The notes: a model not told the origin generated them from the sequence alone. A DNA stretch of 64,000 nt from Takakia lepidozioides (GCA_030704615.1 CM060734.1:47120001-47184000), one strand, 5' to 3'; shown: positions 12,102-61,750, numbered from the stretch's first letter. A program made the numbers and translations.

Positions 12102-12196
12102 AGATTGTAAGCAACACCCACCAGTCAAACTCATCCTTAGAAGAGATTAGATTGTAAGCAACACCCTACCAGTCAACTCATCCTTAGAAGAGATTG
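12102..12196. repeat. ~47-bp tandem duplication
   Basis: AGATTGTAAGCAACACCC..ACCAGTCAA(A)CTCATCCTTAGAAGAGATT occurs twice. Confidence 0.85.
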
Positions 12197-13023: not shown

Positions 13024-13504
13024 GCGGCAACACCACACCATTTAGAAGACTTTTCTTAGTCAATCCCATGCCTTTGCATTTTGAAGACAAACATCCTAAC
13101 CTCTGCTGGTCATCCTCCCATTGGTTTCATTGGAAAAACATGCCCTTTACATAATTCGTACAGTCCATTCAGTCCAGAACGTATCAAGAATATTCTATTA
13201 CATGCACAGAATATGCCAAAATTGAACTTCCAGACTAGTTTTGTTTGCCAACCATCCATCCATCTGGATGTTCACGCAGAGGTGGGTCACATGCAGTTGG
13301 CCACCTGCAGTGACGATCGATCAGTTCACTGCAGCTTGTCTTGCTTGCACTGCCCTTCTGGCTTTCGCAATTGACCCAACTACCCCACTCTCTCACACCT
13401 TTCTGGCAGCCACCTTCCTGGGCACACATTTCTCTCACTCTCTTTTTCACACAAATTACACACTGTAGACCAATACAGTATTGTGGAGCTGAAGTTTGAA
13501 CGTG

Positions 13505-34580: not shown

Positions 34581-34589
34581 GAAGCGATC

Positions 34590-38726: not shown

Positions 38727-39250
38727 TGCCAGTGCAATGTTCATAATGACATTTGGTACAATTCCAGCTTTGATGATATCCCCATGCACCTCTTTGCCCT
38801 TGTCCAGGGCTGCCAGGCTTGCACAAGCATTGAAAATGCACACAGACATGATGTGGCCGAGCATCATTCCTTCCCCATCATTTGATCATAGAACATCAAA
38901 GCCTTCATCCCACGTCCTTGTTGTGCATACCCTACAAGCATTGCATTCCACGACACCACATCTTGTTCAGCCATAGTGTTGAAAACTCCCTTCGCATCCT
39001 CGATGCACCCACATTTTGCATACCCCGAGGGCATTGTTCATAATGGCATTTGGTACAATTCCAGCTCTGACAATGTCACCATGGACCTCTTTGCCCTTTT
39101 CCAGAGCTGCCAGGCTTGGACACGCATTGCAGACGGAAACAGACGTGATGGGGTCGGGCTTCACCCCTTCCCATTTGCTCATAGGTCTCCAAAGCCTCCA
39201 CCCCGCGCCCCTGCTGTGCATATCCTATAATTATTGCACTCCACGATACC
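38727..39250 (-). pseudogene. PLS-type PPR motifs (degenerate)
   Basis: VVSWSAIIIGYAQQGRGVEALETYEQM, VKPDPITSVSVCNAC, KGKEVHGDIIKAGIVPNV, with frameshifts. Confidence 0.85.
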
Positions 39251-42200
39251 ACATTTGGCAGACTTGTCCACCAGGGCACTCTTCAGAATGACATAAGGTA
39301 CAATTATTTCAGCTTTTGACAATGTCACCATGCAGCTCTTCCCCCTTTTCCAGGTCTGCCCAACACTCCCTTTGCATCCTCGACGCACCCGCATTTGGCA
39401 AACCTGTCCACCAGGGCACTATTCAGAACGTACAATTCCAGCTTTTGACAATGTCACCATGGGAGCACCATGGACCTCTTCTCCCTTTTCCAGGTCTGCC
39501 CAGCACTCCCTTTGCATCCTCTATGCACCCGCATTTTTGGCAGACCTGTCACCAAGGCACTATTCAGAATGACATGAGGTACAATTCCAGCTTTTGACAA
39601 TGTCACCATGGACCTCTTCCCCCTTTCCCAGGTCTGCCCAACACTCCCTTTGCATCAGGCCTGTCACCAGGGCACTGTTCAGAATGACATAAGGTACAAT
39701 TCCAGCTTTTGACAATGTCACCATGGACCTCTTCCCCCTTTTCCAGGTCTGTCCCACACTCCTTTTGCATCAGACCTCTCACCATGGCACTTTTCAGAAT
39801 GACATAAGGTACAATTCCAGCTTTTGACAATGTCACCATGGACCTCTTCCCCCTTTTCCAGGTCTGCCCAACACTCTCTTTGCATCCTCTATGCACCCGC
39901 ATTTGGCAGACCTGTCCACCAGGGCACTATTCAGAATGACATAAGTACAATTCCAGGTTTTAACAATGTCACCATGGACCTCTTCCCCGTTTTCCAGGTC
40001 TGCCCAACACTCTCTTTGCATCCTCTATGTACCCGCATTTGGCAGACCTGTCCACCAGGGCACTATTCATAATGACATAAGTACAATTCTAGCTTTTGAC
40101 AATGTCACCATGGACCTCTTCCTCCTTTTCCAAGTCTGCCCAACTGACAAGCCCTAGTCGCGCGCGGCCAGGGTGACGGCATACTAGCCTAGGGGGTCGT
40201 GGCAAGTTGCGGTGTAGGTTGGGCTCAACGAACCGCCTATCCGGTTGCGGTAAGTGCAGGGGTCCGTGGCAGCTATAGATGGATCTAAACAGTCTAACTT
40301 CCTACCGGCAAAGCAAAGCTTAACAACTCCACTTCACAGGGCGATTTGCGTTTCCTAGTCCTACGTTTTGTTTATGGGTTTTCTACGTCTTTAATCGTAA
40401 TTGCCTTCCAAAACTTTGTTTATTACTACTTCCTACATGCCTGGACTCTCAACACGCTTATAGCCGGGACGAACCTTCAAATCCCTTCACAAAACGAATC
40501 CCGAGCCCAGGGAGACGGGGATCATCTATCTCCCGCCCAATGTCCCCCACTAAACCCCGAGGTGGATTAGTTTCCTACCTCCTAGGAAGGGACCGGATCC
40601 GCTTTCCCAAGTCAGTCTCCCCTGCTTAGAGCGATCCAAGTTTCAACCTCAACGGTCAGTCCATCGGGTGAATGATAACAATTCAAACCTCTAGGTAATT
40701 CCCGAGATCTAATAAACAATGGCCGTTCCTTAGCCCAAGGCCTCCCCAGCGGCCGGGTATTTGCCTTCAAATATCATTGGCGGAAGGGGGCGATACCTCT
40801 AATTAAACTCCTGTTTTTAAGTTAAGGGGGTCCGGATAAAATCCCTTATTAAAGGCGAGTTACCCTGCTGAATAATAAAGAACAAATAATAAAAACCCTC
40901 CTACAAATGCATGAAATTCGTAGAAATAGAGAATCATCGTAGGATTCTGGAGCTAACTAAATTACCCTCAAGGTACCAGGGGAACGCCCTTCATGTCGGG
41001 AGCATTGGGGAACCGCTCTCTACTTGGGAGCGCCTCTCAATTCATATACGAAACCAATCAATAACGCATTAGCAACTTAAACAATCACCGGGCCAGGATT
41101 AATGAAATCTGCCGCCCATCAGTTTCTCATTTGATTGTCACCCGGGTGTGTAAACAATGATTAAACATTCAGTGGGTCCCAGGGTCCATTCCATGCGCCT
41201 CTTCCACCTACTTCCAATATAATCTGATTAATTTATGCAAGCAACCAGCCTAGAACGAAGTTGGAACATGTCATCTTCTACCTTGTGAAACCCCTACCAA
41301 GGATTCTCTCCTCCCTATCTCTAGGCTCTCTCTCTCTGCCTGTGGCATCCATCCGTGAGCCGTGCTTTCACAAGCCCCGGTATACATATCAAACTGATGG
41401 CCTCAATGGGGCCTATCCAATGGTACCAACCATTTCTTGTCCTTTGCTAAAACACGCCTTCATTCCCATGCAAGAAGAACACCATGAATAGTGCACAAGA
41501 TCGGAATGGTCGGCAGAGAGGTTGGGGCATAGGGAGAAACCCCCCCTTAAAATACCCGTATCAGGAACCAACAGTCCCTGGCGGGGTCCGTCGTAATATC
41601 CAGCGGTTAAAACCGATACCCCGCGGCCAGTGTTAAGTGGCGCGGCCTGACTGGCCCGCCGCCAGCACGGGTCCAATGGGTAATAGCAGGCTCCGTCGTC
41701 TTTGTCGCTCGTGTCGTACCTGCGCGGGCCCAGCTATGGCACCTGGTGCTGCCACGCAGTGTACCAGCAACCCGTACTTTGCTCCAGGGGTCAACTCCCC
41801 CCACGGGGGAAGGCCGCACCACCCGTGTTACATGCGCCTTTCCATGGCGATTCTAGGCAACCTCCTTGGTTGATCTCCAGCCTAGAGGCGCCTAAGGCGC
41901 ATGCACTTTAGTGTTGGGCTCTACCTTTTTTGGCAGCTCTCTACAAATAGCTTAACCACTTATAAAGCTAGTTAACACTGCCTCCCATGGTCCTCTATGG
42001 CCAGGGGGCTTATGAACATAGATATAAACTTAATAATATGGAAATTTTGGCAATAGCTTCGCCGTCTCATGCAATATGGCCGTTGCCACTAAGCTAGAAT
42101 GGGAAATTTGACAAGAGCTTCGCCACTTCATGCAATCTTGCCCTCTCCTTAAACATAATAATTGACATCTACCCTCACTTCCATGACGTAATTGGGTTAG

Positions 42201-44962
42201 ATTCCTAAGGCCCTGTCTCTGGGGCTTCACACCTGTGCTCTTCACACATGCACATAGATATGCATACACATCCTCTTTGAAAGAGGGTTAGTTTTTATAG
42301 ATTTCTAGCAAGCAATGTTGTAAGGTCCCTTCTTGGAACAAGCTTGAACAACAAATGAAACAAATGAATTCAAATGTCAAGATAATATGGTAAGTCACCC
42401 TCTGAAACAAGTGGTGCTTGGGATGCACTAAATCGCTTGGTAGAATGGTACTCAAATCTGGTCCTCCTCCATCACTCCTACTCGTCCTCAAGTCTCTCAC
42501 TTCATGGAGCGCTTCCTCTACTTTTTGCCTCAAATGGCCACAAGGCCTTGAGCTAGGACTATCTTGTTCTCACTATGTTTGCTTCTACTACTAGAGAGCC
42601 ACAAGCTCAACCCTCTAGGATCTAGCTCCCTCAAGCTCAAAACTAACTACACAAGCAAGAGGCCAAAACAAAGAAATGAGACTAGATGAAGAACAAGAGG
42701 AGCCTGCTCTTCTTTTATTGTGTTTATGGCCTCTTAAACTAGTGAAAGATAGTCTTAAACTATTATTTCCTACATGAGTCTATAATTTAAAAACGATAGA
42801 ACGCCATAAAATAATAACCATTGATGGAAAACCTTGGTGTTAATGATAAATCTGGTTTTTCATCCATCCAATGGATGACCAGTCGGCGCTAGGTTGTCTT
42901 CTCATCCATCCAGCTTGCAGGTCGAATTTCCAGTTTTCATCCATTGGATGAACTAGAATTCCATTTAATCGTCTTTCGCAACTGCCTCCGGCTTGATAAT
43001 TTGATGTCATCTTTCATCACCTCCAAAAATCCCCAAACTGGGTGAAAAATTATAATTAAATGCCCCGTAGCTGCCTGTAAAACCTCAAGGGAATCGAGGA
43101 GGAAAAGCCACCCCTTTGGTTGGTTTCCATGGTTTTGCCATATAGGCAGTCTGCCGCTTCCTGGCAGTAAAAATACTGGTGGTGCCCCCAGGGGGTCTTT
43201 GGCCCTGCCACTGGGTCACAGATCTTATGGAGTTCCCTCCTACATACTTTGCATCGCTAAGGAGTTCAAAACTTCGCCGGGAAGCTCCTTCACCCGTCGT
43301 TTGCTCCGATGCAGCACTTGCTTTGTCGCGATATTTCATCGTTATACATATTGTTTCCTCCAATTGCCAAGACTCCTCGTCGCGTGCTCCTACTGGACTT
43401 GAAAGGCGGGAGAATAGAGAGATCGCAATCCGGGACTGGAACAGTCGTCAAGTATTGTTTCGAACAGGTGCACGTTGTCGTTACTAGTATCGAATTGGCA
43501 GCCTAACTCGCTGTCGATGCAGCTCCCTACGGTCATTTTGACGCCAGAGCTCCTCCATGGTCATCTCAGACATAATCTAAATTCCTACGTGCTTTACCAG
43601 CAATTCCCAGATAACTCGCAAACAACCCTGCTTTGGCAGTACAATGCCTAAATTGTCTGCCTTAAGATCATAAACGATCTGAAAAGAAATTTGTACCAAT
43701 ATATACATCTACACCAACACTCTTTTTGCATCCTCGATGCACCTGCATTTGGCAGACCTGTCACTAGGGCACTATTCAGAATGAGATAAGGTACAATTCC
43801 AGCTTTTGACAATGTCACCATGGACCTCTTCTCCATTTCCCAGGTCTGTCCAACACTCCCTTTGCGTCAGACTTGTCACCCGGGCACTGTTCAGAATGAC
43901 ATAAGGTACAATTCCAGCTTTTGACAATGTCACCATGGACCTCTTCCCCCTTTTCCAGGTCTGCCCCACACTCCCTTTGCATCCTCTACGCACCCGCATT
44001 TCGCAGATCTGTCCACCAGGTTCTTGTTCAGAATGACATAAGGTACAATTCCAGGTTTTGACAATGTCACCATGGACCTCTTCCCCCTTTTCCAGGTCTG
44101 CCCAACACTCTCTTTGCATCGTCTATGCACACGCATTTGGCAGACCTGTCCACCAGGGCACTATTCAGAATGACATAAGTACAATTCTAGCTTTTGACAA
44201 TGTCACCATGGACCTCTTCCCCCTTGTCCAAGTCTGACCCACACTCCCTTTGCATCCTCTACGCACCCGCATTTGGCAGACCTGTCCACCAGGACACTGT
44301 TCAGAATGACATAAGGCACAATTCCAGCTTTTGACACTATCACCTCTTCCCCCTTGTCCAAGTCTGCCCCACACTCCCTTTGCATCCTCTACGCACCCGC
44401 ATTTGGCAGACCTGTCCGCCAAGGCACTGTTCAGAATGTCATAAGGTACAATTCCAGCTTTTGACAATGTCACCATGGACCTCTTCCCCCTTTTCCAGGT
44501 CTGCCCCACACTCCCTTTGCATCCTCTATGCACCCGTATTTTACAGACCTGTCCACCAGGGCACTGTTCAGAATGAAGCACCTCTTCCCCCTTTTCCAGG
44601 CCTGCCCCACACTCCCTTTGCATCCTCTACACACCCGCATTTGGCAAACCTGTCCACCAGGGCACTGTTCAGAATGAAGCACCTCTTCCCCCTTTTCCAG
44701 GCCTACCCCACACTCCCTTTGCATCCTCTACACACCCGCATTTGGCAAACCTGTCCACCAGGGCACTGTTCAGAATGTCTAAGGTACAATTCCAGCTTTT
44801 GACAATGTCACCATGGACCTTTTCCCCCTTTTCCATATTGTTGAACACTGCCTTTGCATCCTCCACATTTGACATACATGTCCACCAGGGCAGTCTTCGG
44901 AATGACACATGATACAATTCCAGCTTTCATGATTCACCATGGACCTCTTTCCCCTTTTCCAG
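39250..44962 (-). repeat. PPR-derived tandem array (~18 units, mostly 136/137 or 115 bp), split by a solo LTR
   Basis: The marker TCACCATGGACCTC occurs at 39603, 39718, 39833, 39969, 40105, 43815, 43930, 44067, 44203, 44470 and elsewhere. A unit translates to EKGEEVHGDIVK/AGIVPYVILNSALVDRSAKCGCIEDAKGV. Confidence 0.9.
40145..43713. mobile_element. 3.57-kb solo LTR or non-coding LTR element
   Basis: Starts TGACA and ends TACA, with a 5-bp TSD CCAAC at 40140-40144 and 43714-43718. No recognisable ORFs. Removing it restores the 136-bp period of the host array. Confidence 0.8.
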
Positions 44963-45062
44963 AAAGAGGCTCTACAGACTTTAAACCAAGGAGCATTTCA
45001 ACAGATTCAGATATGTATGTCTGTCTCTTGCTTAAGTGCATCAAGATGAAAGGTCTGGAAGC
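44963..45062 (+). pseudogene. N-terminal fragment of a PLS PPR gene
   Basis: KEALQTLNQG/ISTDSDMYVCLLLKCIKMKGLEA resembles the first L-type motif of bryophyte PLS-DYW proteins. Confidence 0.55.
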
Positions 45063-45064
45063 TA

Positions 45065-46158
45065 GATGTCGGCGTGATGCCTTTGATAGAGCTGGCACAG
45101 CTGTAGTGCCCATGGTAAATCCCATTGCCCGCTCTCACTCATCTGCATTGGGCTCCACCAATTGCTGTAGCACACTGTCCCAAATCAGCCCAGGACCATT
45201 GTCTCGAAAAGCATGAGACGAGGGAAAGCTCATGAGCGTAGGCAAGGCCGCATGTGGCTGCCCCACTCGATTTACCACTGCTAGAGGTGGACGGTCATCA
45301 TGTCGCACCCTCTGTGGTTGCCTCCCTTGGTCCAAAATGCCCTCAGCTGTGAAATTGGGTGGCCGTTGAATAGAATCGTATGCTCTCTTGAGCAGCTCTG
45401 GTGTTGCAAGATTAGTCCACCACAATCGAGGTCAATGCGCTCGTGATCCCACCGCTGCTGCATCCAATAGCACCGCCGATCCAATCCAAGACCGCACCTG
45501 ATGCACACTGGCCATCACCCTGGCCCGAGAGTCCCCCATAAGAGGAACATTCTCCAAGATATAGGCTAGAGGTTGCACTTGCCTTGTCTGCAAGTCACGC
45601 AACACTCTCAATATCTCCCAAAACAAATGCGATCGTGCATCATGCAAGCCGTTCCCATGACCTGCGGGAGATGTGTCCTTGGCAAGGCCATCCAGCTATC
45701 ACCAAGTCAATGGCACCATGCCGGTCCAAATCATCCGCCCCCAACAAGGTAATGTTTGCTGGCAAGGCCTTTTGATACCCTTGAATTGTTGAGAGAGGCA
45801 ACAACTCAGGGTACCGGTGTGTGAGCAAGGCGATGTGGCGCATAGAAATACGCCGAGCTATCTTATCCTTCTCCACATATAAGTACTTGCGTACTTTAAT
45901 CCCTGTACTCATGCCTCCAAACAGGTCTAGCAAACAAATCCCTGAGTCAGGTGGTTGCCAAGTAATGGGCACTGTATCCAAAGGAGCTAACTGAGGAAGT
46001 CCAGGTGATGTCACTGAACTCCCCTCACTCACCAATGGATATGCCTCCTGCCATGCTTGGTGCACACACTCGCCTGCTATTCGATGCAAATTCCTAACTG
46101 TAACCCACAGTGGAATATGAACATACACATGAGGAAACAAATCAGCCTTGTATGCCAA
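45065..46158 (-). pseudogene. DNMT3-like C5 cytosine methyltransferase domain within the retroelement
   Basis: Motifs in canonical order: I LLDLFGGMSTG, II YVEKD, IV DLVIAGWPCQG, V DARSHLFWEILRVL, VI YILENV, VIII AH*PRLWWTNL, IX E*ERAMGF. One frameshift after PCQG and two TGA stops; cut before motif X. Confidence 0.88.
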
Positions 46159-46319
46159 TTGTTTGTCCTCATCATGTTCCTATGATCCACCGCTACATTC
46201 CCATAAAACCGCACTGGGAGCAGTGCACGTCGACCATCCCCTGATTGCCATTCCAGCCTGTAGGATGCCGTTTCCTCCCAAAAATCCAAAGTAAATCCCA
46301 TCGGGTATAATACAGCCCC

Positions 46320-49300
46320 TGTCGCGGCCCTTTGCCTTGAGAGCAGGGGGTCGGGACACATGAGGGGCTGCCCTGTGGTGGGGCAGCGGCAGCGATAGGT
46401 ATGGGGGGCTGAAGCACCCTTGAGTGCCCAAGGCACCCAAGGAGGCGGAGGCGCTCACTAGGTGGAGCCCCGCACACCGGGTTGCGGTGGAGGTGGCCAC
46501 AAGGGGTGGTGGTAGCTTAGTGGGACTTAGTGGGGGGTGGCATAGGACTCACCATGGGGTGGAGACCTCGAGGTGGGAGTCGTGGGGAGTCTTGGGACTC
46601 ATCACGGTCCATTGGGGCCGCGTGGAGTGGGCCAAGACTCACCGCGACTCACCACCGGGAGTCGAGGGTTTTCGTGGTGGTTCGCCATAAAATGGCATGG
46701 CTGGTTATGAAACCCCCGCGGACAGCTACAGAAGTATATATAGGGAGTAGTAACCCCGAGAACGGTGCAAGCCCGTTGGTGACCAAAAACTAGTGAGTAA
46801 GCGAGCGAGCCGGAAAGCGACCAAAGAGTGGGGAGCTGTTCCGGACTGCCATCTACCAAAGGGAATTCTCCTAGTCCCAAATAGGTGGAGGGTTTAGAGG
46901 GAAGCGGAAGGGGACCGTTATGTCCCGGTGAGCAGCCGAAACTCCAAGTTGGCCCGGCGGCCAGGTTGGGAGTCAGGCGCGCGCATCAAAGCGAGTAACT
47001 ATGACTTGAAGGGGAGTTTACCGAACTGAGGTGTGCGACACTTGGTATCAGAGCTTAGAGTTCAGTACGCGATCGTCCTTGGGATTGGCCTCATCATGGG
47101 TCGGGCAAGCCGAAGCGAAAGCGGAACGGCCCAAAAGATGATGATCCCGGTGAGCCCGATGGGGGCGACGTGTCACCGAGGCGGCCGTTTGAGGAAGCGA
47201 TTAATGTTTCCGAAAACGAGGCCGCTCAGGAGCGGGAGGAATCCGAGGAGTCGGAGCCCGAGGAATCTTTGAGAGCTCCGACAAACCAAGAGATGCCTCC
47301 CATGCCGGCAGCCTTTTGGGAAGGGTTGTTGGCGCAGTTTGGCGGGACGTTGAAAGACGTGTTGAAGGCGGCTAATGCCACTCCACCAAGGCAAAGTTAA
47401 GGTGAAGCCTAAGGAACCCGGCACCTTCGAGGGCGTTCGAAACCGGAAGGCACTCAACACCTGGCTCCTGGAGCTAGAGCAGTACTTCCGGCGGCCAAGT
47501 TGAGTGACGAGGATCGGGTGAAGTGGCTCCCACCTATTTTGAGGGCTATGCTCAACAATGGTGGCAGAAACGCCTTCACGACCGAAGCCCAAGCCCGGAA
47601 ACCTTGAACTGGAGTGAGTTCAAGGCATTGATGAAGAGACCGTTTGTGCCCCTCAACGCATCCTGGTTGCCCGCGGACAAGATGAGGAATTTGAAGCAAA
47701 CAGATGACAGTATTCGGGGGTATGTCCAGGCTTTCAATGTGCTGTTGCTCGAAGTCGCGGACATGGCAGAACCAGAAATGGTCTTCAACTTTGTGGCGGG
47801 ACTGGCCCCATGGGCTAGGCGGAAGTTGGAGGAGAAGCCACCCAAGACTTTGAACGAGGCAATTGAGAGAGCTGAATGTTTCTCGGATGTCCCTAGGGGT
47901 GAGAGACAAGGCCGTACGGAGCTGAACCACAAGAAGACCCGGCGGGAAGGTGACTCCTCCCGACCGGAAAAGAAGTGGGATAGGCCACGCGGCGAAAATG
48001 GCACGTGGAAATCGAAGGGAGGCCTTCACACGTCAAGGCGGCACCCGGTGCTTCGAAAGGAAAAGCGGGGGGAGCGACTTATGGCGGACAGAAGGCGACC
48101 TTTGATGGAGTGTGTTTCAATTGCGGGGAGCCCGGGCACATGGCCAAGAAGTGCACGAAGCCCCGGCAATTGAACATGACTCGGGCGACCACGGAGCTGT
48201 CGGAAGATACCATCAGTCGCTTGGTGGAAGCGGTGGTCGCCAGGACTTGCAAGGTAGGCAAATTTTCTTGTGAGTTGTATCAGGAAACTGGCGCCTTACG
48301 AAAAGGGAGTCAGTTATTGTTCGTGGATGGGATAATATCCGGAACTAATGTGTCGTTGTTGGTGGACACAGGAGCGTCGCACTCCTTCATGACGCCGGCG
48401 GCGGCGCGAAAGTTGGGACTCCCGACAAGTGACGTGGGGGCCTCTATTGAGGTGCGCTCTGCCAAAGGAGAACCTCAGTTGGCGACAAGGTTGGCGTTTG
48501 ATGTTCCTTCAACTGGGGAGTTGGGAGGGACGTGAGAACTTCACATCTGCGAGATCGATGGAGTGGATCTCATTTTGGGAATGACCTTTTTGAGCAAATC
48601 CGGAGCGGTCATAGATGGCCGCAAGAGAGTAGTCACGCTGCCATGTGGGAATGGTGGCGAGGTTTTACGAGTGTCGGAAACGCCCAAATCCGTGGGAGGG
48701 CGAATAAACCTTCTGTCAGCAAAGGAGTGGGCCGTGGAGGAGGACACACGAGTCCCAGTTTTTGCTTTACATTAGAGAAGTGAAAGGAGAAGGCGATGGG
48801 AGCCGAGCCCAGATTGGATCAAGGGGATTTTGGAGAAATACCAGGATGTGATGCCGGAGGATTTACCAAGCGGCTTGCCACCGCGAAGAGGAGTTGACCA
48901 CAAAATTGAGGTGATACCGGGATCGGAACCGCCTGCCAAGGCGCCCTACCGGTTGAGCCACAAAGAGTTGGTCGAGCTGAAGACTCAGCTCAAAGATCTA
49001 ATGTCAAAGGGGTACATCCGGCCGAGTAAGTCACCTTACGGAGCCCCGGTGCTATTTGCAGACAAGAAGGATGGGACGCTGCGGATGTGTGTCGATTACA
49101 GGGCTCTGAATAAGGTGACTATCAAAAACCGGTACCCTTTGCCAAGGATCGACGACCTTTTCGATCGGTTGGCAGGAGCGAAGTATTTCAGCCGGATCGA
49201 CTTGCGCTCCGGCTATCACCAAATTCGGGTGGCGGAAGGAGATGAGGAGAAGACCGCGTGCAGGACAAGGTATGGTTCATATGAGTTCTTGGTGATGCCT

Positions 49301-52300
49301 TTTGGGCTCACCAATGCACCAGCGACATTTAGCACGCTGATGAACAGCCTTTTCCAGGAGTGGTTGGATGACTTTGTGATCGTGTACATCGACGACATCT
49401 TGGTGTACTCGAAAACAAAGGAGGAGCACCTGGAGCACCTCAAAAGGGTGTTCCAAAAATTGCGAGAAGGGAAGCTGTATGCCAAAGCTTCAAAGTGCGA
49501 ATTCGGGGTCACAAAAGTGGAGTTCTTGGGGCACGTGATTACACAGGATGGGATCAAAATGGATGACAGAAAGGTGAGGGCGATCTTGGACTGGGAGCCT
49601 CCGACTTCGGTCCCGGGAGTGCGATCCTTCCTAGGACTCGCCTCCTACCGGAAGTATGTGAGAAATTTCGCCAAGATCGCGGGGCCGCTGTCGGACCTTC
49701 TGTGTAAATCCAAAGTCTGGGTATGGAACACATTTTGTGGCCAAGCTTTTGCTGAATTGAAGCAGCGGATGACGGAAGCTCCAGTCTTAAAAATCCCGGA
49801 GTTCGATCGTCCGTTTGAGATTCATACAGATGCATCGGACTTCGCAATGGGGGTGTACTTATGCAAGATGGACGTCCAGTGGCTTACGAAAGTAAGAAAC
49901 TGAATGAAGTGGAGCGACGGTGGCCGACGCACGAAAAGAGATGAAGGCGGTGGTACATTGCCTTGAACTCTGGCCACTATGTTGGTTCCAACCCAGTGAA
50001 GGTGTTCACGGACAATGTCACGGTGAAGTATTTTGCCACGCAGCCCAAGTTGTCCCCAAAACAACTTAGGTGGCAAGATACTTTGGCAGTGTTCGACGTG
50101 GATATCCAGTAAAAACCGGGACGGGACAATGTGGTGGCCGATGCTTTAAGTAGAAAGCAGCAGCTCTTGTTGGTGTACAAGGGCGAGACGGCGCTCCAAA
50201 GGAAGATCCGGAAGGCTTGCCGGAAGGATGAGCTGGCAAAGTGCGTGATGCAGAACTTGAGAATGGGGGTTAAATCGCAGTTCCACTTGCAAAACGGACT
50301 GCTCCGGTATAAGCAAAAACGTCTCTATGTGCCAAAGGGAGGGATCAGGGATAGTCTCTTGAGAGAATGCCATGATAGCCCGCTTGCGGGCCACGGTGGA
50401 GCCAAGCGCACTGCGGCACTCTTGAAGAAAGAGTATTTCTGGCCCAAACTGAGGGAGGAGGCAGAGGAGTATGTAAGACATGCACCACATGCCAACAAAA
50501 CCGGAGCGAGTATAAAAAGCAAGCGGGGCTGTTACAACCCTTGCCGATTCCAGAGGGGACTTGGGAAAGCGTCTCGATGGATTTCATGACTGCTATGCCG
50601 CTGTCAAAAGGATTCGATGCAATCATGGTGGTGGTAGATAGGTTCAGTAAAATGGCCCATTTCATCCCCACCAAGGAGACGGCAACTGCGCAGGAGACAG
50701 GGCGACTTTACTTCGCCCACGTCTTAAAGCATCATGGAGTCCCGAAGGATATTGTCTCGGACGCGATCCAAAGTTTACGAGTAAATTCTGGAGAGCACTT
50801 TGGAAGAAGATGGGGACGAGGCTGAAGATGAGCACCGCCTTCCGACCTACGACGGACGGCCAAACGGAAAGAGTGAATTCCGTAGTGAAGCAATTCTTGC
50901 GGAATTACGTGTCGGCAGACCAATCAGACTGGATGGAACACTTAGACGCGGCAGAGTTCTGTTATAATAACACAGAACACTCCGCGACGGGAGTTTCCCC
51001 TTTGTGTTGGTCTATGGAAAAGCACCTCTGGGTGCCGACAAGTTGGGCCGCCCAGGACGTTGAGGAACCGCAGTAGCGGCGGTACTGGAAGAACGCGAGC
51101 GTTTGTTGAAGCTCGCAAAGTACAACATTGCCAAAGCTAGGAAACGGTATGAAAGGCAGGCGAATCGGAAGCGGAGGGAAGTGAAGTTTGAGGCAGGCAC
51201 AGAGGTCTGGTTGAACATCAAGAATTTTCGACTACCTCCGGAAATGAGTCCGAAGTTCGTACCTCCGTATGCGGGTCCCTTTCGCATTCGGAGGGTTATG
51301 AATGAGGATGTGTATGAATTGGAGCTGCCAGCAAACAGCAAGGTGCACCCAGTATTCCATGTCTCCCTTTTGAAGCCTTACTTCAAAGATGAAGCACGTC
51401 CGAATCGGCAGCAAGTGTTGCGTCCGCCACCTATGCTGTTGGATCATGAAAATGAACCCGAGTACGAGGTGGAGGCATACTTAAGTCGAGGAGGTTCAAG
51501 AACCGAGAAACGGAGTATCTCGTCAAATGGAAGGGCTATCATCTTGTGGAGGCATCTTGGGTGCGTGCCTCAGAAATGGGAAACGCATCCGAGGCAGTTG
51601 CAGCGTTCGAAGGGCGACCTCAAAAGCGGAAGAAGCGTTGATGGGGACATCAACCTTGGAGCGTGGGGGAGGAAATGCATGCTTAGCCCGGTTTAGCTAG
51701 CTCAGGAATCCGATTGCAAAAACTTGTATTGTACAAAAATTTGTATAAAGGAAATGGGTTCCAAATATTGTGCGTCCTATTGTGTTTGGAATGGTGATGC
51801 ATGGTGTGGTTGGCTGGTGTGTAGAATGCATGCTAGCTTACAAAAGTGGGAGAGGTAAATTGGGTTAATCGTGTGTTTGCGCAGTGCCGAAATCGGGTGA
51901 CTCCCATCCAAGGGGCAAGGAAACTTGCGCCTTATTTGGGAGTTCAAGTGCTAGTGCGCACCTGGCGCGTGCGCGTACTATAACTGCGCTACCGAGGGGG
52001 TTGCCTTGTAGTGCGGGCTAACGCGGAAGCTACGTGCTTCCGTTCACGTACTATAATCGTGTAGCCTCGGGACGAAGTCGTAGTGCGGCTTCGGCGTGTT
52101 CCCGTACCTCAGGCCAGCATTCCAAGGCGGACCCAATTGTAGTGATTGGGGCGCACGGTTGGTTCAAGGTTATCTTCCTAGTCAAAGAGGGTTCCAGGTG
52201 AACCCTTGCTCAAGGTGATGCCAAAAGCGGCATCATGAGCGATCGCAAGCAATGTTGTTGCAGTAAGGCGATTCGATCCTCGGGGAGGATCGTTCCTTGG

Positions 52301-53266
52301 CCTTGAAGTAGGCCAAGAAGAGTGCACTGGGAGGAGCTGGAGAGGCTCCACCCTTGGCCGGGACTTGGAGGAAGTCGGCCGAACTAGCTAGTGGAGAGTG
52401 GAGTCAAGTGTGGGTTTGGTTCTTTGCCATGGGACGCCATGGTACGGAAACAAACTCCTTGATGTGGGACGCCACAACTTGGATGTTCGTTTCTACAAAA
52501 TGGACAAGTCGATGAGGACATCGACTCCCTGTTGGTAGGGGTGTGTGTCGCGGCCCTTTGCCTTGAGGGCAGGGGGTCGGGACACATGAGGGGCTGCCCC
52601 TGTGGTGGGGGGCAGCGGCGATAGGTATGGGGGGCTGAAGCACCCTTGAGTGCCCAAGGCACTCAAGGAGGCGGAGGCGCTCACTAGGTGGAGCCCGCAC
52701 ACCGGGTTGCGGTGGAGGTGGCTCCACAAGGGGTGGTGGTAGCTTAGTGGGACTTAGTGGGGGTGGCATAGGACTCACCATGGGGTGGAGACCTCGAGGT
52801 GGGAGTCGTGGGGAGTCTTGGGACTCATCACGGTCCATTGGGGCCGCGGTGAGTGGGCCAAGACTCACCGCGACTCACCACCGGGAGTCGAGGGTTTTCG
52901 TGGTGGTTCGCCATAAAATGGCATGGCTGGTTATGAAACCCCCGCGGACAGCTACAGAAGTATATATAGGGAGTAGTAACCCCGAGAACGGTGCAAGCCC
53001 GTTGGTGACCAAAAACTAGTGAGTAAGCGAGCGAGCCGGAAAGCGACCAAAGAGTGGGGAGCTGTTCCGGACTGCCATCTACCAAAGGGAATTCTCCTAG
53101 TCCCAAATAGGTGGAGGGTTTAGAGGGAAGCGGAAGGGGACCGTTATGTCCCGGTGAGCAGCCGAAACTCCAAGTTGGCCCGGCGGCCAGGTTGGGAGTC
53201 AGGCGCGCGCATCAAAGCGAGTAACTATGACTTGAAGGGGAGTTTACCGAACTGAGGTGTGCGACA
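46320..53266 (+). mobile_element. Full-length Ty3/Gypsy chromovirus copy 2
   Basis: 721-bp LTRs at 46320-47040 and 52546-53266 (TGTCGC...GCGACA); TSD GCCCC at 46315-46319 and 53267-53271. Gag with CFNCGEPGHMAKKC, protease LVDTGA, RT YIDD, RNase H, integrase, and a chromodomain EYEVEA/ILKSR..EYLVKWKGY..ASW (~51460-51610). Confidence 0.96.
47043..47054 (+). promoter_or_regulatory. Primer-binding site for initiator tRNA-Met
   Basis: TGGTATCAGAGC two bases after the 5' LTR. Confidence 0.9.
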
Positions 53267-53271
53267 GCCCC

Positions 53272-53620
53272 ACCAACAAGCACATCATAAGACATCGCGT
53301 CCGTAACAATGGCTTTAGCTCTCATGACAGAGCCATATGTAGGATGATCTGGCTGCAATCGAATGAAGAGCTCATGGCGTGTAATCCCTCGTGCCTTCTC
53401 TAAACCGCCCAAAGATGTTTGAATTTGGAAAGGACAAGGCTCCAAATCCGCCTCTGTAAGGCCCAAGCCTGCAATTGCTGCTCTCCCCAACATCAATGGC
53501 TGTGCTCCCAAGTCCAACAAGACCCGCAGTGGCCTATACCTCCTCCCGGCAAGGCCACCCAACTGAAACACACCATCCTGATTGTCCACCAGGACTACCC
53601 CAGGAGTAACCATACTACGC
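53272..53620 (-). pseudogene. Aspartic protease of the MTase-bearing element (continues at 46319-46180)
   Basis: RVLLDLGAQPLMLG...SYDVLVGGA. Removing the chromovirus and one TSD rejoins YDVLVGGAVLYPMGFTLDFWEE in frame. Confidence 0.8.
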
Positions 53621-53721
53621 TCAATGGCTGGTCTAGCTGGCAACTCCTACAACCTTGCAGCTACCGCTTGCCATGGCGCAGCTGTGGTTGTTTTCACCCT
53701 AGAATCCAAGGCATCCATGCA

Positions 53722-55614
53722 CTACACCTGATCCGCTATCCCCGCAGATAGTGCCGATGCATCACCACTCTCACAGAGTGCAGCTGCCAGTCTAAACACT
53801 GCAGCTGGCCGCATCCCCGACATTGCAATTGTCGTGGCAGAGAATAATGGAGCTTGGCAAATTGTCGTAGCCGCCCCCAACAATGTATTGGCTGCACCTT
53901 GCTTTGCAGTACCACCCACTGGCATTTCCCGAGCCATACCAACTCTCCCCAATGACACTCGTGGCTCTACTTCTGACACACTTGGGCGAGCGGGTGCCAT
54001 CGATGGCATAGTTGGCACTGTCTCAGCCAATGTGAAAGACCGTAGAAGCCTTTTCTGCCGACTTGCTTCCCCTCTTTGTGGATCAAAATCCACATCCGCT
54101 CGAGTGACAGCAGCTGCAGAATCCACATGCAATGGTCTTGCAAGTGCGGCTCCACACATGAAGCCCATACCAATCCGGTCTTCCCTAGGCATAGGAGGTT
54201 GTGCAGGTGGGGCTTGAACCTCAAGCCTTGGAGCTGGCGCAACATGAGTAGTGGCCATGGCAACAAGACGTTGCTCTAGCTGGGCAAGTCTATCCACCAT
54301 GCCTTGGTCATGACCTTGACCCTGACCCTGTGCTCCTTGGTTTTGGTTACGTTCTCCACCCCGATCTCTGCCTCCTCTACCTCTCTGGACTACATTGCCT
54401 CGTCCTCGGCCACCATTGTTCCTTTGGAACTGGCCTGGCCGTAGCTCAGGATGCAAGTCATAACAATGGGCCTCTTCATGCCCATATTTGCCACAATGCC
54501 CACATTGTAGTTGTGTAGGTTGTGCCTGTGCCGGCCCTTTGCCTCATTCCGGGCAATCTCTCTTAACATGGGATCCTCCACAATCCCAACATGTCACACC
54601 CAACTGTTGTTGGCCTGAGAATGAAGGAAGTGACCTCTGCAATTGAGATCCTCTCGGCCCTTCCCTGGGCTTTGCCTGAGCCCCTTTGTTGCCTTGAGCA
54701 CGTTGGGGTAGTGGTTGTTGTTGGCTAGGAGCCCTACTTCGTTGTGTCTCCTGACCAAACCCCACCATGACCACTTGCTCCTCCACCATATTGAGCTCTA
54801 TCTGCTCTGCCAGCAAAAACACATTTGCTAAGGTGGGTTGGTCCACTTGTAGGAGAGTTGCATCCCGCACCCTTCTCCTCAGCTCCTTGTCCAGGATCCC
54901 ATACCAGAACTGGACTGCCTGAGCTTCTGTAACCCCTTGGGTTACGTTTATCAAGCGCCTCATGCGAGTGTAAGCCTCCCTCAAACTCTCAGTAGACCTT
55001 CGTTGGAACTCTTGCAAGCTCCGCAACTTCTCTGTCCTTATCCCTTGGTAGTTTCTCCTCAACTCCTCGAAGAACTCCACAACTGGGTTAAAGGCAGGCA
55101 CGGGTGTTGGTGCTGCAGCAGGAGCTTGGGTGGACTTCCCAGCTCATGTTCCACTTGACGTCCCACTGCTGCTTGCAGAAGCTGCCGGTGTAGCTGCCGG
55201 TGTCACCACTGCCCTTGTGCCTCTAGTGATGGAGACATAGTCAGGTGACAAATACACCCGTCATTCCTCAATCTCCACCTCATGTCCCCGCCTAAACTCA
55301 TGGTAGTCATCCATGGGCGGCCCCTCAAGGTGCTGAAACAACCCCTTCCACGCCATAAAAGGCGTAAATAGTTGTGGATTACGCATCTGCTGCAAATCAC
55401 ACCACCTATCAAACTCATGTATGAAATCATCAAGCTCGATGGTGCCCACAGCTCCAGAGTACCAACGTGGCTCCTTGGTAGCTCCATACATTTCCTCCAT
55501 CGTATCCCACAACAATGGCACGGAAATGGCTTGCACCCTCGGCGAGAATCCTCCTAACTCTGAGTCTGAACCTTCCTCAAAAAACACTGAAGGTGAAGGT
55601 GGCCTAAACCGCAC
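53722..55614 (-). pseudogene. gag of the MTase-bearing element with two CCHC zinc knuckles
   Basis: YSG..ELDDFIHEFDRWC; LQEFQRRSTESLREAYTRMRRL (retrotransposon gag major-homology-like region); CWDCGGSHVKRDC and CGHCGKYGHEEAHC; RG-rich tract; internal stops. Confidence 0.8.
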
Positions 55615-56691
55615 ACCTCGTCTTGTATACCCACTAGTATCGCTAGTGCTCGTACTGGCACTCTCCTCAGCAACTGGTTGCAGCTCCGTGATGAAAACTC
55701 ACAACCATATGTGTTGTAAACTTGTCTCTAATCCCCCTTTCCACAAGGTAACCGGGTAGAGAACCTGTTGCGGCTTATGGCTTAGACTACTAGGTTCGTA
55801 ACACAAACCTGCACCTGCATCCACCGCAAGCACTCATATGGTCTGCTGGTCATCAACCCAGCCTCACCATAAGAGAAACAATGGTGGTCTGACTGGTCAT
55901 CACCCCAGCCTCACCACCGACAACATGCTCTAGGATTGGCCGGTGATCAAATCCGGACCAACCTCCTATGAAAACAAGCACCCACACAAAACTGACATGG
56001 CACATAGTCAAGCATGCAGGTGTGGGGGGGATCCAAACACAAGAAAATCAAGACAGTAACTCCCCCACACCAAAAAAAAACACTCCACAGTATCGCTCCT
56101 GCAAGGACACCCCAGCCCAAACCCGGACTGACTCTTGCCTCCACCTACGGAAAGGTTTTGGCCTACATAGAGGGTGGAAGACTACGAGGAAGAGAGACTA
56201 AGGAAATTCTTAATCCTAGAATGCTCTCATCCCACTAGTCTCCCCCTATCTCTAAACGCTCTTGCTCATGACCAACAGACATAACTACCTTCCAGGGTCT
56301 CTCAAAATCTCCAAGAGCCCTCAAGATGTCTCTCAAACAATCTCACTAAGGCCCCCAAAGCCTGCCAAATCTTGGCCCTCAAGGACCCCAAAAAGTCCTT
56401 CAGACAAGTTGCCAAAGACTCCTTAAGCTCGCCAAATATTAGCCTCCAAGGACCCCAAAATAGTCCTCCAAATAGCCCTCCAAAGCTCCAAATGTTTGCC
56501 AAATATTGGTCTTCAAGGACCCCCCCCCAATAGTCCTCCAAACACCCCTTCAAGAGCTCTTCAAGTGTCTTACAAAAGCTCCTCAAAGGACCCCCCAAAG
56601 ATCCTCCAAAGGCAATACTCCTCCAGATACACCCTAGATGTCATACTTTTTTTAATGAAAACGTATGGTAGGCAAAGTCTCTCCACTTGTA

Positions 56692-56866
56692 TCCATACCT
56701 TGTTCACAAAAGTGTATGGTGGGGCAGATGGAGCCCATACACTGTTCACAAAAACGTATGTTGGGCAGAGGGGGCCCATACTCTGTTCACAAAAGAGTAT
56801 GTTGGGCAGAGGGGTTCCATACTCTGTTCACAAAAGTGTATGATGGGCAGAGGGAGCCCATACACA
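56692..56866. repeat. ~41-bp tandem repeat, ~4.5 units, in the element leader
   Basis: CCATAC..TGTTCACAAAA..GTATG.TGGGCAGAGGG at about 56692, 56735, 56776 and 56817. Confidence 0.85.
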
Positions 56867-58719
56867 CAGTTTCTTGAAGAGTATGGAGACTAGGGTTTGT
56901 AGAGTATAGTAAGAAACACCTTCTTCATGGTATCTTCCCCCCTAACATGCATGCAAGATTGCATTATCTTACTTTGCAATGCATTCATCCCAAATTGACA
57001 AGTTCCTCTTGATCTCCTTGGAACTCATAGCAAGCTAATGTGCCCAATGACAAGTGCCAAGCATTGCTTGAATTTGAATTTTGTATGCCATCTTCCATGT
57101 GCTTTCCCTTGCATGGGCTAGTCACACACACTTCCACCTCTTGACCTAGGTGTTCTCTTCATTCATCATAATGTGTATCCACACCTCTATTCAAGAGCTC
57201 ATCTTCTCAAACTTGAAGTCACAAGCCCTAAAGAGCATGCTCCACATAAGCATCACTTGCTTGAACAACCATCCACCACAAAACTTAAGCAAAAAGGGAA
57301 TGAATACATGAGCTTCACCTTCCCCTTCCTTGTCTTGTCACATGCTAATGTATGGTTGAAGTTGCTATGCATGCCGTGAGCCACAATCTCCTTTCTTCAT
57401 GAAGACCACCTCCAATGATCTCCCACATGTGCTCCAAGCTCTTAAATACTCTAAGCTTGGTTTCACATCATCATGGATAGAATTCTCACCCACATGATTC
57501 CCTTTGGAGTCATCTTGAGCTTCTTGATGCTCTCCAAGTGGTTGCTTTTGTTGTCTTCAAGCCCTAGCCTATGTAGCTCCTTGGATTTTCTTCCACAACA
57601 TGCACCACCTTATACACAAGGAATGAACTTGCTCACTTCACCTTCTAGCTCTCCTCAAGCTTGAATTGGAAGCCACACTTGGAAAGCATGCTCCACACAT
57701 GCGCCACTTGCTTGGTCAATCACTTGCTTCACCAAGAGCAATCCAAGAACTCATAGAATTAGCAAAAGCACTCCCCTTCTAGTGCGCCTTCGCTTGCTTG
57801 TTTGTCAACCAAATGAAACCCCATTTGGCTTCATTTCACCATGGATAGAACAACCACTTCTTAGCTTCTCTTGAGCTACTCAATGCTCCTCAAACTACCC
57901 TTATTGTACTCCTTCTATGGTATTTCCAACCCAAGCATGTGCCGCTCTTTGGCTTCTCTTTCACACCATGAACAAGTACTAGAGCTTGCTCTTGAAACCC
58001 TAGTGTTTATCTTCTCCACACACAAGACGCTTCTCTTGTGATGCAAGAGCTCTTTTCCAAGTTCTCAAACCCTTAGTGCACATACAAGCACTTACCTTGC
58101 AAAACCATGCAAGCTTTGTGATACAAGAGCTCTCTCCTTAAGCTCTCCACCTCTGCAAAGTCTTGTAACTCAAGAGCTCTCTCCTTGAGCTCTCCACCTC
58201 TTTGATGCAATGCAAAAACACTCCTCCTTGCAGCACCTTGCAAGCCTTGTAAGATACTTGAGCTTTTCTAGCTCTCTCACTCCTTGGTGTACACCAACAC
58301 AAGTGCTAAAACTAATCCTTACACTCCGCACTCACAAGCATAAGGCGATCTTCTTGTAGTGATAATGGAAGTGAACACACAATGGAAACACTCCACTCAT
58401 GAATCCACTCAATCACATAAACTAAGTCAAGCCAAGGGCACCTTTGCTAAAGGAATCTGTCCTACAAAGCCCTCACCACACTCCCTCTCAATACCTAGAG
58501 CTATGGAGGTGAGAGAGGCTCATGGAGGCTCAACTACAAGAAGATGAGCCCTCCTCAACACTCACAAGGGGAAAACCCATCCCCATGTCCCAAGTGAGGT
58601 TTGACACCTCACTTGGCATGTAATGAAGTCCCAACACACAAAATACAAATATAAATATCCAAAATGTCCTAGTTAGTAGAAGTAGGTAATTCTAGTTAAC
58701 CATGACTAAAACCATGACA

Positions 58720-60536
58720 AGGGTATTGTTCATAATCACATCTGGTACAATTCCAGCTTTGGCGATGCAACCATGCACCTCTTTGCCCTTTTCCAGGGCT
58801 GCCAGGCTTGCATACGCATTGCAAACGCACACAACCGCGATGTGGTCGGGCTTCACCCCTTCCCCCATCATTTGCTCATAGGTCTCCAAAGCCTCCATCC
58901 CACGCCCCTGCTTTGCATACCCCCTGCAAGCATCGTGTTCCACGACACCACATCTCGTTCAGCCATATTGTTGAAATTAACTCCCATTTGCATCCTTAAT
59001 GCACCCACATTTGGCATACATGTCCACCAGGGCAGTGTTCAGGATGACATCTGGTACAATTCCAGCTTTGACGATGTCACCATGGACCTCCAGAGTTCCC
59101 AGGCTTGCACACGCATTGCAAACACAAACAAATGTGATGTGGTTGGTTTTCACCCCTTCGCACATCATTTGCTCATATGTCTCCAAAGCCTCCATCCCGC
59201 ACCCTTGTTGTGCATATCCTGCAACATCACACTCCACAACACCACATCACGTTCAGCCATACTGTTGAACACTCCATTTTCATACTCGATGCACCCACAT
59301 TTGACATACATATCCACCAGGGCAGTGTTCAGAGTGAAATCGGGTACAATTCCAGATTTGACGATGTCTCTTTGCCCTTTTCCAGGTCTGCCAAGGCTTG
59401 CACACTCATTGCAAATGCAAACAAATGTCATGTGGTTGGCTTCACCCCCTTCGCACATCATTTGCTCATAGGTCTCCAAAGCCTCCATCTCGCGCCCTTG
59501 CTGTGCACATCCTGCAATCATCGCACTCCACGACACCACATCACGTTCAGCCATACTGTTGAACACTCCATTTGCATCCTCGATGCACCCACATTTGACA
59601 TACATGTCCACTAGGGCAGTGTTCACAGTGAAATCAGGTACAAATCCAGATTTGACGATGTCACCATGGACCTGTTTGCACTTTTCCAGGGCTGCCAGGC
59701 TTGCACACGCACTGCAAATGCAAACAAACATCATGTGGTTGGGCTTCACCCCCTTCGCACATCATGCTCATAGGTCTCCAAAGCCTCCATCCTGTGCCCT
59801 TGCTGTGCACACATCCTGCAATCATCGCACTCCATGACACCACATCACGTTCAGCCATACTGTTGAACACTCCCTTCATACATGTCCACGAGGGTATTGT
59901 TCAGAATGACATTTTGTACAACTGCAGCTCTGACAATGTCGCCATAGTCCTCTTTGCCCTTTTCCAGAACTGCCAGGCTTGCACACGCACTGCAAATGCA
60001 CACAAACATGATGTGGTTGGGCTTCACCCCTTCCCCCATCACTTGATCATAGGTCTCCAAAGCCTTCATACCACATCCCTGTTGTGGATACCCTGCAAGC
60101 ATCGTGTTCCATGACACCACATCTCATTCAGCCATAGTGTTAAAAACTCCGTTCGCATCCTTAATGCACCCACATTTGGCATACATGTCCACCAGGGCAG
60201 TGTTCAGAAAGACATCTGGTACAATTCCAGCTTTGACGATGTCACCATGGACCCCTTTCCCCTTTTCCAGAGCTCCCAGGCTTGCACACGCATTACAAAC
60301 ACAAACAAATGTGATGTGGTTGGGCTTCACCCCTTTGCGCAGCATTTGCTCATAGGTCTCCAAAACATTCCTACCACACCCATGCTTGGTAAATCCTGCC
60401 AACATTATATTCCAAGTGATCAAAGATCGTTGAGGCATTCTGTTGAACACTTGGTGAGCATCCATGATGATCCCGCACTTAACATACATGTTGACAAGGG
60501 TGTTGGAGAGAAAAACATTTGGCGTGAATCCACTTG
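58720..60536 (-). pseudogene. PLS PPR array (about six P-L-S triplets, degenerate)
   Basis: SGFTPNVFLSNTLVNMYVKCG..QVFNRMPQRSLITWNIMLAG..GVKPNHITFVCVCNACASLGALEKGK repeated, with stops and frameshifts. Confidence 0.92.
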
Positions 60537-60540
60537 CACT

Positions 60541-61100
60541 TTAGATAATGATGAGGCAGTGGACCTAATTAATAAAATGCCAATCAATCCAGATGTTGTG
60601 GTGTGGAAGGGCTTGCGTGGTGCCTGCAGAATCCATGGCAATGTGGAGATGGCTGAACATGTGGCAACATCTATCCTCAAGTGGGATGAACAGGATGTCG
60701 CGACTTATGTGTTGCTATATCAAACATCTATGCTGCAGCTGACAGGTAGGATGATACTACAAAGGTGAGAAGGATGATGAAGGTCAGAGGGGGTTGGAAT
60801 TGAGGTTGGCAACAGGGTGCACACCTTCGTTGTAGATGATAAGTTGCATCCCATAATTAAGGAAATCCATGTTGAGCTAAGAAGATTGTCTGGGCAGATG
60901 AAGAGGCGGGGTATGTGCCTGACACGCGCTTTGTATTGCATGATGTGGAGGAAAGGAATTTTCTCTTTGCCACCACAGTGAGAAGCTGGCCATTGGTTTT
61001 GGGTTGATTTGCACGACTCATCAAGAATCTTCGAGTGTTTGGAGACTGCCACACCTCCACCAAATTCATCTCAAAGATTGATGGCCGAGCAAATGTTGTA
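60541..61100 (+). pseudogene. E/E+/DYW deaminase domain of an organellar RNA-editing factor, degenerate
   Basis: DEAVDLINKMPINPDVVVW..GACRIHGNVE, YVLL/SNIYAA, IEVGNRVHTFVV, GYVPDT, HSEKLAIGFGLI, KNLRVFGDCH. The first Cys of CxxC is replaced, the PG box is deleted and the terminal DYW is missing. Confidence 0.88.
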
Positions 61101-61339
61101 TGTTGGTTCAATTAATATCAATGAAAATACACCCAACTAAGGGATAACTTATGTGAATAATGAGAGGACGATATACTTACTGCTCCTCCTTTGGGTGTGA
61201 GAGCACTGTCATCAGAAGGATTTGTAGCTAGCCGTGGTGCAATGTACAATTGTTGCGCGAAGGGTTGGGATTCTCATTTCCTCTTTGTGTTGTTGTGGAT
61301 CTACTGGTATTTCTCTTTATCTCTCTCTCTGGTACAAGC

Positions 61340-61750
61340 CTCATTGCCGCAGATGAGAGACGTCACGAGAATGCATACACCAAGATTGTGGAGAAGCTTT
61401 TTGAGTTGGACCCTGACGGGGCCATGCTGGCGTTTGCTGATATGATGAGGGAGAACATTGTTATGGCAGATGATGGACAGAATGAGCACCTTTTTGACAA
61501 TTTTTCTCTGGTGGCCCAGAGGACGGGGGTGTATACTGCTCGGGACTACGCTGACATCATGGAGCACCTGGTAAATAGGTGGAATGTCGCAAGTATCCAA
61601 GGGCTCTCCAGCGGGGGTCAGAGAGCACAAGATTATGTTTGCTCGTTGCCACCTCACATCCGGAAGCTTGAGGAGCGGGCACAGTCTAAGGTGAAGACGG
61701 GTCCGAAAACTTGAAGTTTTAGCTGGATTTTCAACAGGGAAGCACGGCTC
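61340..61750 (+). pseudogene. SAD: 3' fragment of a stearoyl-ACP desaturase
   Basis: [35 protein letters not shown] and SFSWIFNRE. The PAHLM block is missing, there is a premature stop at ~61712, and no upstream exons are visible. Confidence 0.85.

Follow-up and report, generated by a model that had tools for sequence, protein, structure and literature searches.

A land-plant family of Gypsy-Dnmt3 retrotransposons, traced from a dead, interrupted copy in the moss Takakia lepidozioides

Does a retrotransposon of a moss carry its own cytosine methyltransferase, and if so, what would the element gain from it? The question is raised by a stretch of 64,000 nucleotides from Takakia lepidozioides (GCA_030704615.1, CM060734.1:47120001–47184000; hereafter the window), in which an initial annotation described positions 45063–58719 as a long terminal repeat (LTR) retrotransposon with a DNMT3-like methyltransferase (MTase) following its protease. 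We find that the element in question is almost certainly a member of a multi-copy family rather than a host gene. This family represents in land plants the Gypsy-Dnmt3 kind published for the alga Klebsormidium in 2018 (de Mendoza et al. 2018, PMC5890265; this and the other publications cited are quoted from the portions of their texts available to us), and the same domain order is already present in a K. nitens protein. The reading that we prefer, with a probability of roughly 0.6, is that the window holds a dead, 3′-truncated Ty3/gypsy copy, active members of which likely package the MTase together with Gag and likely methylate newly made copies of their DNA ahead of insertion.

The interval 45063–58719 consists of a nested pair, in which an inner chromovirus on the plus strand splits the protease of an outer gag–protease–DNMT element on the minus strand. 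The inner element, a frameshifted chromovirus-type Ty3/gypsy element at 46320–53266, is delimited by LTRs of 721 bp (46320–47040 and 52546–53266), identical at 711 of 718 aligned bases and separated by seven substitutions, and by a 5-bp target duplication, GCCCC (46315–46319 and 53267–53271). It has a Met-type primer site and encodes gag, protease, reverse transcriptase (RT), RNase H (RH), integrase (IN) and a chromodomain (E 7e-10); it is a young chromovirus. A second copy of the same chromovirus family, older, 5′-truncated and 88% identical, lies at 34589–38726 (+) and ends at an array of PPR repeats.

The proposal that the inner insertion hides the link between protease and MTase, and that its removal rejoins the protease halves, is borne out by a tblastn comparison with the Marchantia protein Mp4g09160 (P0005, 1278 aa), which is colinear with the outer element across the insert. 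Residues 1–724 match at 55500–53257 (47% identity) and residues 720–757 at 46319–46206 (71%), followed by residues 817–977 (54%) and 980–1191 (64%), the alignment reaching approximately position 45065. The protease halves thus rejoin as in Mp4g09160, and colinearity holds overall at 47–71% identity.

The outer element is a repeated family in its host. In host run X1, 6685 contigs fell on the 1451-bp MTase stretch, where a single site draws about 50–70, and 25,941 fell on the 5.5-kb gag side; these counts, like summed depth, are to be read as repetition of the family and not as copy number. A search with the C-terminal half of the MTase returned 832 cluster representatives and 33 longer homologues of 43–73% identity, the named ones being from Marchantia, Calypogeia and Sphagnum. 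More distant named relatives, identified from 30 that were looked up among 150 listed cluster representatives, come from Closterium, Mesostigma, Klebsormidium nitens, Scenedesmus, Haematococcus, Chromochloris and Cymbomonas. The order gag–protease (PR)–DNMT recurs in the relatives from Marchantia, Calypogeia, Sphagnum, Closterium, Mesostigma and Klebsormidium. Metagenome loci, of which the best 80 of 123 were retained (63 distinct), reach up to 100% identity with an integrase probe from Sphagnum; all relatives were gathered by way of the DNMT. Twelve of the 80 loci carry gag-PR-DNMT-RT-RH-IN-PHD on a single contig (PHD finger, E 5e-9); a DNMT placed between RH and IN was seen in none. Among 197 proteins with a near-complete DNMT domain, it stands after the protease or before RT in 41 and after RNase H or before integrase in 110, with 46 left unassigned. 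The Ty3/gypsy set of the Gypsy-Dnmt3 kind, in RT-RH-IN order, is found in relatives and is absent from the truncated window copy. Two related elements, in loci L017 (1–2019) and L043 (14739–16610), are nested near family copies, and their RNase H is 62–64% identical to a Marchantia probe.

The integrase of the relatives has zinc-binding and rve domains, which follow RNase H. DIRS elements use a tyrosine recombinase, not a DDE integrase, and membership of the DIRS/Ngaro group was accordingly rejected.

The family order is gag-PR-DNMT3-(stop)-RT-RH-IN-PHD. The initial annotation had envisaged a polyprotein gag-PR-DNMT-(RT-RH-IN); its domain order is that of the relatives, but the product is not one polyprotein, since an in-frame stop occupies one conserved place between DNMT and RT in 54 of 55 matches. 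The stop is mostly followed by CAA-CCC-ATG, a context that we take to resemble those of read-through, and RT lies in the frame of the DNMT in 37 of 53 loci. The DNMT is fused to RT in P0079, P0247 and P0382, and the K. nitens protein P0163 finishes just after its DNMT. Hence the DNMT closes the first open reading frame (ORF1; Gag-PR-DNMT), apart from RT.

What, then, is the methyltransferase? In the window its motifs follow one another on the minus strand, as first described, in order and with no introns: I (45930), II (45879), IV with PC (45711–45679), V, VI with ENV (45563), VIII (45443) and IX (45134). A family profile ranked DNMT3A/B/C first (E 1e-23 to 1e-17), DRM second (1e-13 to 1e-9) and bacterial enzymes after these, and a structure model of the natural relative P0003 (predicted local distance difference test score 92.6) had DNMT3 chains in all of the structural matches listed. 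The domain is thus DNMT3-like by profile and by predicted fold, in agreement with its original designation. Host plant DNMT3s carry DUF3444 (PMC6453930), a domain absent from all 23 homologues scanned. No relatives were found in prokaryote genomes with a single short query, or among viral contigs; the Atlas search returned only generic C5-MTase clusters. A recent phage origin is not supported, phage MTases being 24–31% identical among the 10 matches listed.

Across the 80 loci the catalytic Cys is kept in 78, the Glu of ENV likewise in 78, and FGG and motif X are nearly invariant; PCQ occurs in 26 of 29 PR-DNMT proteins. In the DNMT, nonsynonymous and synonymous changes number 251 and 73 (ratio 3.44) when private to one copy and 189 and 118 (1.60) when shared (p 1e-5), which argues for purifying selection on the domain in replicating lineages. 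A related enzyme, that of Symbiodinium, has CG methylation activity in yeast (PMC5890265). It is quite probable, judging by motifs and predicted fold, that the family includes an active methyltransferase.

The ends of the element are unusual. Paired LTRs had been expected of the outer family, yet two identical direct terminal LTRs, as in a canonical LTR retrotransposon, were not found: the ends are split or permuted, with the form A-internal-B or A-internal-B-A-B, so that a search for paired LTRs would miss the family. Relatives do have other canonical features of LTR elements, namely TG...CA ends, a target duplication and a polypurine tract. The left end is a repeat of 339 bp (A), which carries an exact TGTCATG in 21 of 25 cases, and the right end is the polypurine tract followed by a repeat of 115 bp (B). 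Of 28 right ends, 21 have B only, four have B-A-B, one has B-A cut by the contig and two end with the contig; after removal of duplicates and addition of two loci with damaged junctions, the distinct right ends number 17, 3 and 2. Among 10 loci with both ends, the target duplication is an exact 4 bp in seven, matches at three of four bases in two and is missing in one.

The B|A junctions are palindromic, reading CA, two bases, TG. The A2|B2 junctions are precise in three loci, contain filler in one, and in one further locus, which was assembled twice, contain filler along with a remnant of the primer site; such remnants or filler at two of five independent junctions fit end-joining. No tRNA primer site was found in the family. 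Instead, the 11 bases that follow A complement a site inside A, with at most one mismatch, in 13 of 28 ends (one of the 28 being a misclassed A2) as against one of 560 controls, and the complementary site mostly lies 171 bases from the end of A. At the equivalent place the window copy shows a 12-base complement of different sequence, likewise paired in the predicted fold. A self-priming signal is thus predicted to replace the tRNA site, in the window copy as well. The A/B structure of the ends, combined with the geometry of the primer, implies that B plus A makes up the functional LTR and that the integrated ends lie inside it.

The copy in the window can be read along the minus strand from its 5′ boundary at 58719, where the annotated limit stands: the element begins there with the family terminal motif and interrupts a PPR unit. 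Only A1 of the terminal repeats is kept, at 58360–58719 (end of U3, R and U5, that is, of the unique 3′, repeated and unique 5′ regions); it starts TGTCATG, finishes CA and aligns weakly with repeat A of locus L059 (score 155, shuffles giving 123±9 with a maximum of 147). The predicted self-primer, corresponding to the presumed first 12 bases of the RNA and exactly complementary to the bases after A, is at 58534–58545, and the primer-binding site, not tRNA-like, at 58348–58359. There follows a long 5′ leader (55501–58347) with tandem repeats of 67 bp (three units) and 41 bp (4.2 units), the whole of which presumably belongs to the element. Gag (54463–55500) has three stops and two zinc knuckles (54591–54553 and 54504–54463). 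The gag–protease linker and most of the aspartic protease (53272–54462; motif at 53520–53500) have two stops and are recognized by tblastn and weakly by Pfam (E 0.049), and the C-terminal end of the protease, 71% identical to Mp4g09160 over the residues given above, lies beyond the insert at 46206–46319. The next segment, a frameshifted protease–MTase linker (45946–46205), is about 32 codons shorter than in relatives. The MTase had been placed directly after the protease; it does follow it, but in relatives a linker of about 120 aa lies between the two. In the window copy, a frameshifting deletion between 46206 and 46122 puts the MTase out of the protease frame.

The MTase itself (45066–45945) retains motifs I–IX without motif X, lacks eight residues after motif I, and has two stops and a frameshift near 45672. 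It ends at a deletion junction (44962–45065), where it adjoins an unrelated 100-bp repeat and a PPR array; RT, RH, IN, PHD and the 3′ end are all missing beyond the cut at about 45065, and no second LTR of the outer element was found within the window. With seven stops in all (five in gag–protease, two in the MTase), two frameshifts, and motif X and everything downstream gone, the copy is dead, as first stated. At two of the breaks listed, most other contigs from the host runs differ from the window copy. A contig of run X9, which is only guessed to be RNA, spans the protease end and the MTase start, with 45097–45733 uncovered, and is uninformative on expression. Among 32 listed sites with changes private to the window copy, 8 are CG, 10 CHG and 14 CHH, the background being 11, 17 and 71%; these contexts represent host-type marking and are not evidence for self-methylation.

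How old is the association between element and enzyme? Trees of the DNMT and RT were built as quick searches on subsets of 66, 42 and 48 rows, with Shimodaira–Hasegawa-like approximate likelihood ratio (SH-aLRT) support only. The window copy falls within the bryophyte group (support 99–100). Several chlorophyte relatives (P0063, P0206, P0220, P0243 and others) have the order RT-RH-DNMT-IN-PHD, and elements with DNMT between RH and IN, including all named chlorophytes, form one branch in both trees (99–100), which suggests that the domain moved once within the lineage. The backbone of the DNMT tree, which is without a host DNMT3 outgroup, is not resolved, and K. nitens P0163 forms a long branch on it. 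In the RT tree, which is without reference lineages, the DNMT-bearing groups join at a support of 84 together with two elements of unseen DNMT status. The DNMT domains of liverworts (P0003–P0011) and of Sphagnum-like moss loci share about 70–77% identity, a level that equals that of a host gene, with the window copy diverging below the two groups; this closeness may reflect strong selection, old paralogues or horizontal transfer.

The life cycle of active members might be envisaged as follows. RNA would start inside repeat A and prime itself as in Tf1. Gag-PR-DNMT would be made in bulk from ORF1, and the DNMT would thus be present at Gag-like amounts; RT-IN-PHD would depend on read-through of the stop or on re-initiation immediately after it. 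Released by the protease in the particle, it would methylate double-stranded complementary DNA (cDNA), probably at CG; we regard the identification of cDNA as the substrate as evenly poised. The cDNA (B-A-internal-B-A) would be end-joined or recombined into a circle, the palindromic B|A junction of which, rather than the cDNA tips, would be cut by the integrase, and the structure of the ends inclines us slightly towards such a circle route. Finally, at the target, histone H3 would be recognized by the PHD finger, and upkeep of the mark would fall to host enzymes. Whether all of this applies to one ancient green-plant Ty3/gypsy clade, spanning chlorophytes, Mesostigma, mosses and Marchantia, in which a working DNMT3 has persisted from before the origin of land plants and which combines self-priming, a leaky stop, enzyme at Gag amounts, cDNA methylation and circle-junction insertion by a DDE integrase, is a tentative proposition that we would not yet favour.

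Several observations weigh against the preferred reading. The 3′ half and 3′ end of the element are known from relatives only, not from the Takakia host. The arginines of motif VIII are decayed in many copies (kept in 46 of 80 and 59 of 73), and pairwise dN/dS of the DNMT (0.54–0.61) indicates weaker constraint than on RT, RH and IN (0.25–0.43). CpG depletion of the element (0.41–0.50) equals that of a host exon (0.46) and so gives no pointer to self-methylation; neither this depletion nor the contexts of the mutations distinguish methylation by the element from methylation by the host. In yeast, no methylation was obtained with the Klebsormidium enzyme, a result that its authors deem inconclusive (PMC5890265). 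As to the circle, the form A-B-A-internal-B, some instances of which a plain two-LTR circle model predicts, was not seen among 25 left ends, and A-internal-B can also be obtained by recombination between B1 and B2.

Some of these points would also suit a DNMT that is retained for something other than catalysis, or that catalyses only weakly: it might bind or shield cDNA, flip bases or act as a decoy for the host methylation machinery. The inactivity in yeast and the weaker constraint relative to RT are what this idea would lead one to expect, as is the replacement of PC by LC, MC or EC in many chlorophyte relatives. We nevertheless consider it unlikely, given the near invariance of Cys, ENV, FGG and motif X over the 80 loci, the prevalence of PCQ in PR-DNMT proteins, and a predicted fold that is complete and confident. 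Alternatively, the enzyme may be active in trans after entering the nucleus, where it would methylate integrated copies or the target site and thereby limit harm to the haploid host. A trans role has been raised in general terms (PMC5890265), and location on an abundant ORF1, apart from RT, would allow release as a free enzyme; yet the domain scan of ORF1 in relatives found no reader or targeting domain, the PHD finger sits on the integrase, and fusion to Gag would favour packaging, so that this too seems improbable. Chance juxtaposition of a host DNMT3/DRM retrocopy or pseudogene with a gag–protease fragment might be suspected from a join hidden by an insert, an out-of-frame MTase and a Pfam result that is blank in the N-terminal MTase half and reaches only E 7e-5 in the C-terminal half, but this explanation, like that of a host gene, is refuted by the lack of introns, by multi-copy relatives, by colinearity with single proteins of several genera, by the thousands of contigs on the MTase stretch, by a motif order unpermuted, unlike that of DRM, and by the lack of DUF3444 in the 23 homologues scanned.

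DNMT-bearing retrotransposons of dinoflagellates and Klebsormidium, to which the initial annotation had alluded, are described in PMC5890265. KnitGypsy-Dnmt3 of K. nitens, also a Ty3/gypsy element, shares with the present family a Dnmt3-related domain that is intronless and unpermuted, and DIRS-like repeats, arranged A1-ORFs-B1-A2-B2, and its acquisition was placed in the K. nitens lineage. The protein GAQ93235.1 (P0163), which has gag, zinc knuckle, protease and DNMT and aligns with Mp4g09160 over 569 aa (29%, E 2e-54), is presumably a copy of it. The hosts considered here are land plants instead of an alga, and the family is highly repeated; most copies are A-internal-B, and a conserved stop parts DNMT from RT where the authors report one ORF. 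Self-priming, 4-bp duplications and a PHD finger are not mentioned for KnitGypsy-Dnmt3 in the available text (PMC5890265), and the capture appears to predate the K. nitens lineage by a wide margin.

We found no publication that places Gypsy-Dnmt3 in land plants, subscription papers and repeat databases being outside the search. It is not mentioned in the available portions of PMC6453930, PMC10952607, PMC11244446, PMC6317226, PMC9477723, PMC9985172 and 10.1101/363937; PMC12344493 and bioRxiv 10.64898/2026.05.21.726589 speak of 'streptophytes', citing the 2018 work, and supplementary trees may include bryophyte copies. To the extent of these texts, the range of the family is wider and its replication anatomy odder than described in print.

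Other systems share single traits with the family. SymbioDIRS-Dnmt3 has a Dnmt3-type domain, whose CG methylation was shown in yeast, and split direct repeats (PMC5890265), but it is a DIRS element and its DNMT is remote (E 1e-9, very long branch). Tf1/Sushi and Tcn1 chromoviruses, the latter known in mosses, are likewise self-priming and independent of tRNA, but possess ordinary paired LTRs and chromodomains, whereas the present family ends in a PHD finger (PMC6317226). The integrase of foamy virus also cuts a palindromic junction to give processed ends; there, however, the junction is formed from cDNA tips, while in the present family the att pair has a fixed position within the LTR (PMC1180852). 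The host enzymes PpDNMT3a/b have an unpermuted DNMT3-type catalytic domain, with DUF3444 and outside polyproteins, unlike the family (PMC6453930). The EpiLTRs of Cymbomonas and Euglena likewise combine a cytosine DNMT and a chromatin reader in an LTR element, but are DNMT4-related, with a DAM domain and a chromodomain, and the authors separate them from Gypsy-DNMT3 (bioRxiv 10.64898/2026.05.21.726589).

Elsewhere in the window, degenerate PPR-repeat arrays at 38700–44960 and 58720–60700 (−), matched by very many host-run contigs, house both retroelement types. A multi-exon gene for an E3 ligase of the SUD1/MARCH6 type (395–6832, +) formed a separate branch in a quick tree, within a group that includes Sphagnum and Physcomitrium (99), which places the host among the mosses. 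A long interspersed nuclear element (LINE) with endonuclease and RT occupies 26266–31126, with two fragments, 95–96% identical, at 9017–10535 and 18317–19911; inverted repeats of about 390 bp around LINE fragments at 7936–13030 possibly mark a DNA transposon. An acyl-ACP desaturase exon (PF03405) lies at 61232–61714 (+).

What a retrotransposon gains from a cytosine methyltransferase of its own was left open in PMC5890265, where the Gypsy case was treated as a capture in a single alga. The range of the family points to a much older capture or to repeated transfer, and its presence in Marchantia, a model for genetics in which methylomes and methylation mutants are available, makes the purpose testable. 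Marchantia gene models labelled 'hypothetical protein' are ORF1s of the element with intact catalytic motifs, which affects counts of bryophyte DNA methyltransferases. The split ends explain how surveys for paired LTRs could miss the clade, and they suggest an unusual route of integration. If the proposed mechanism is true, it would constitute a replication route between those of LTR and DIRS elements, missed by finders of paired LTRs, and the family would supply bryophytes with de novo methylation from a source that has stayed hidden.

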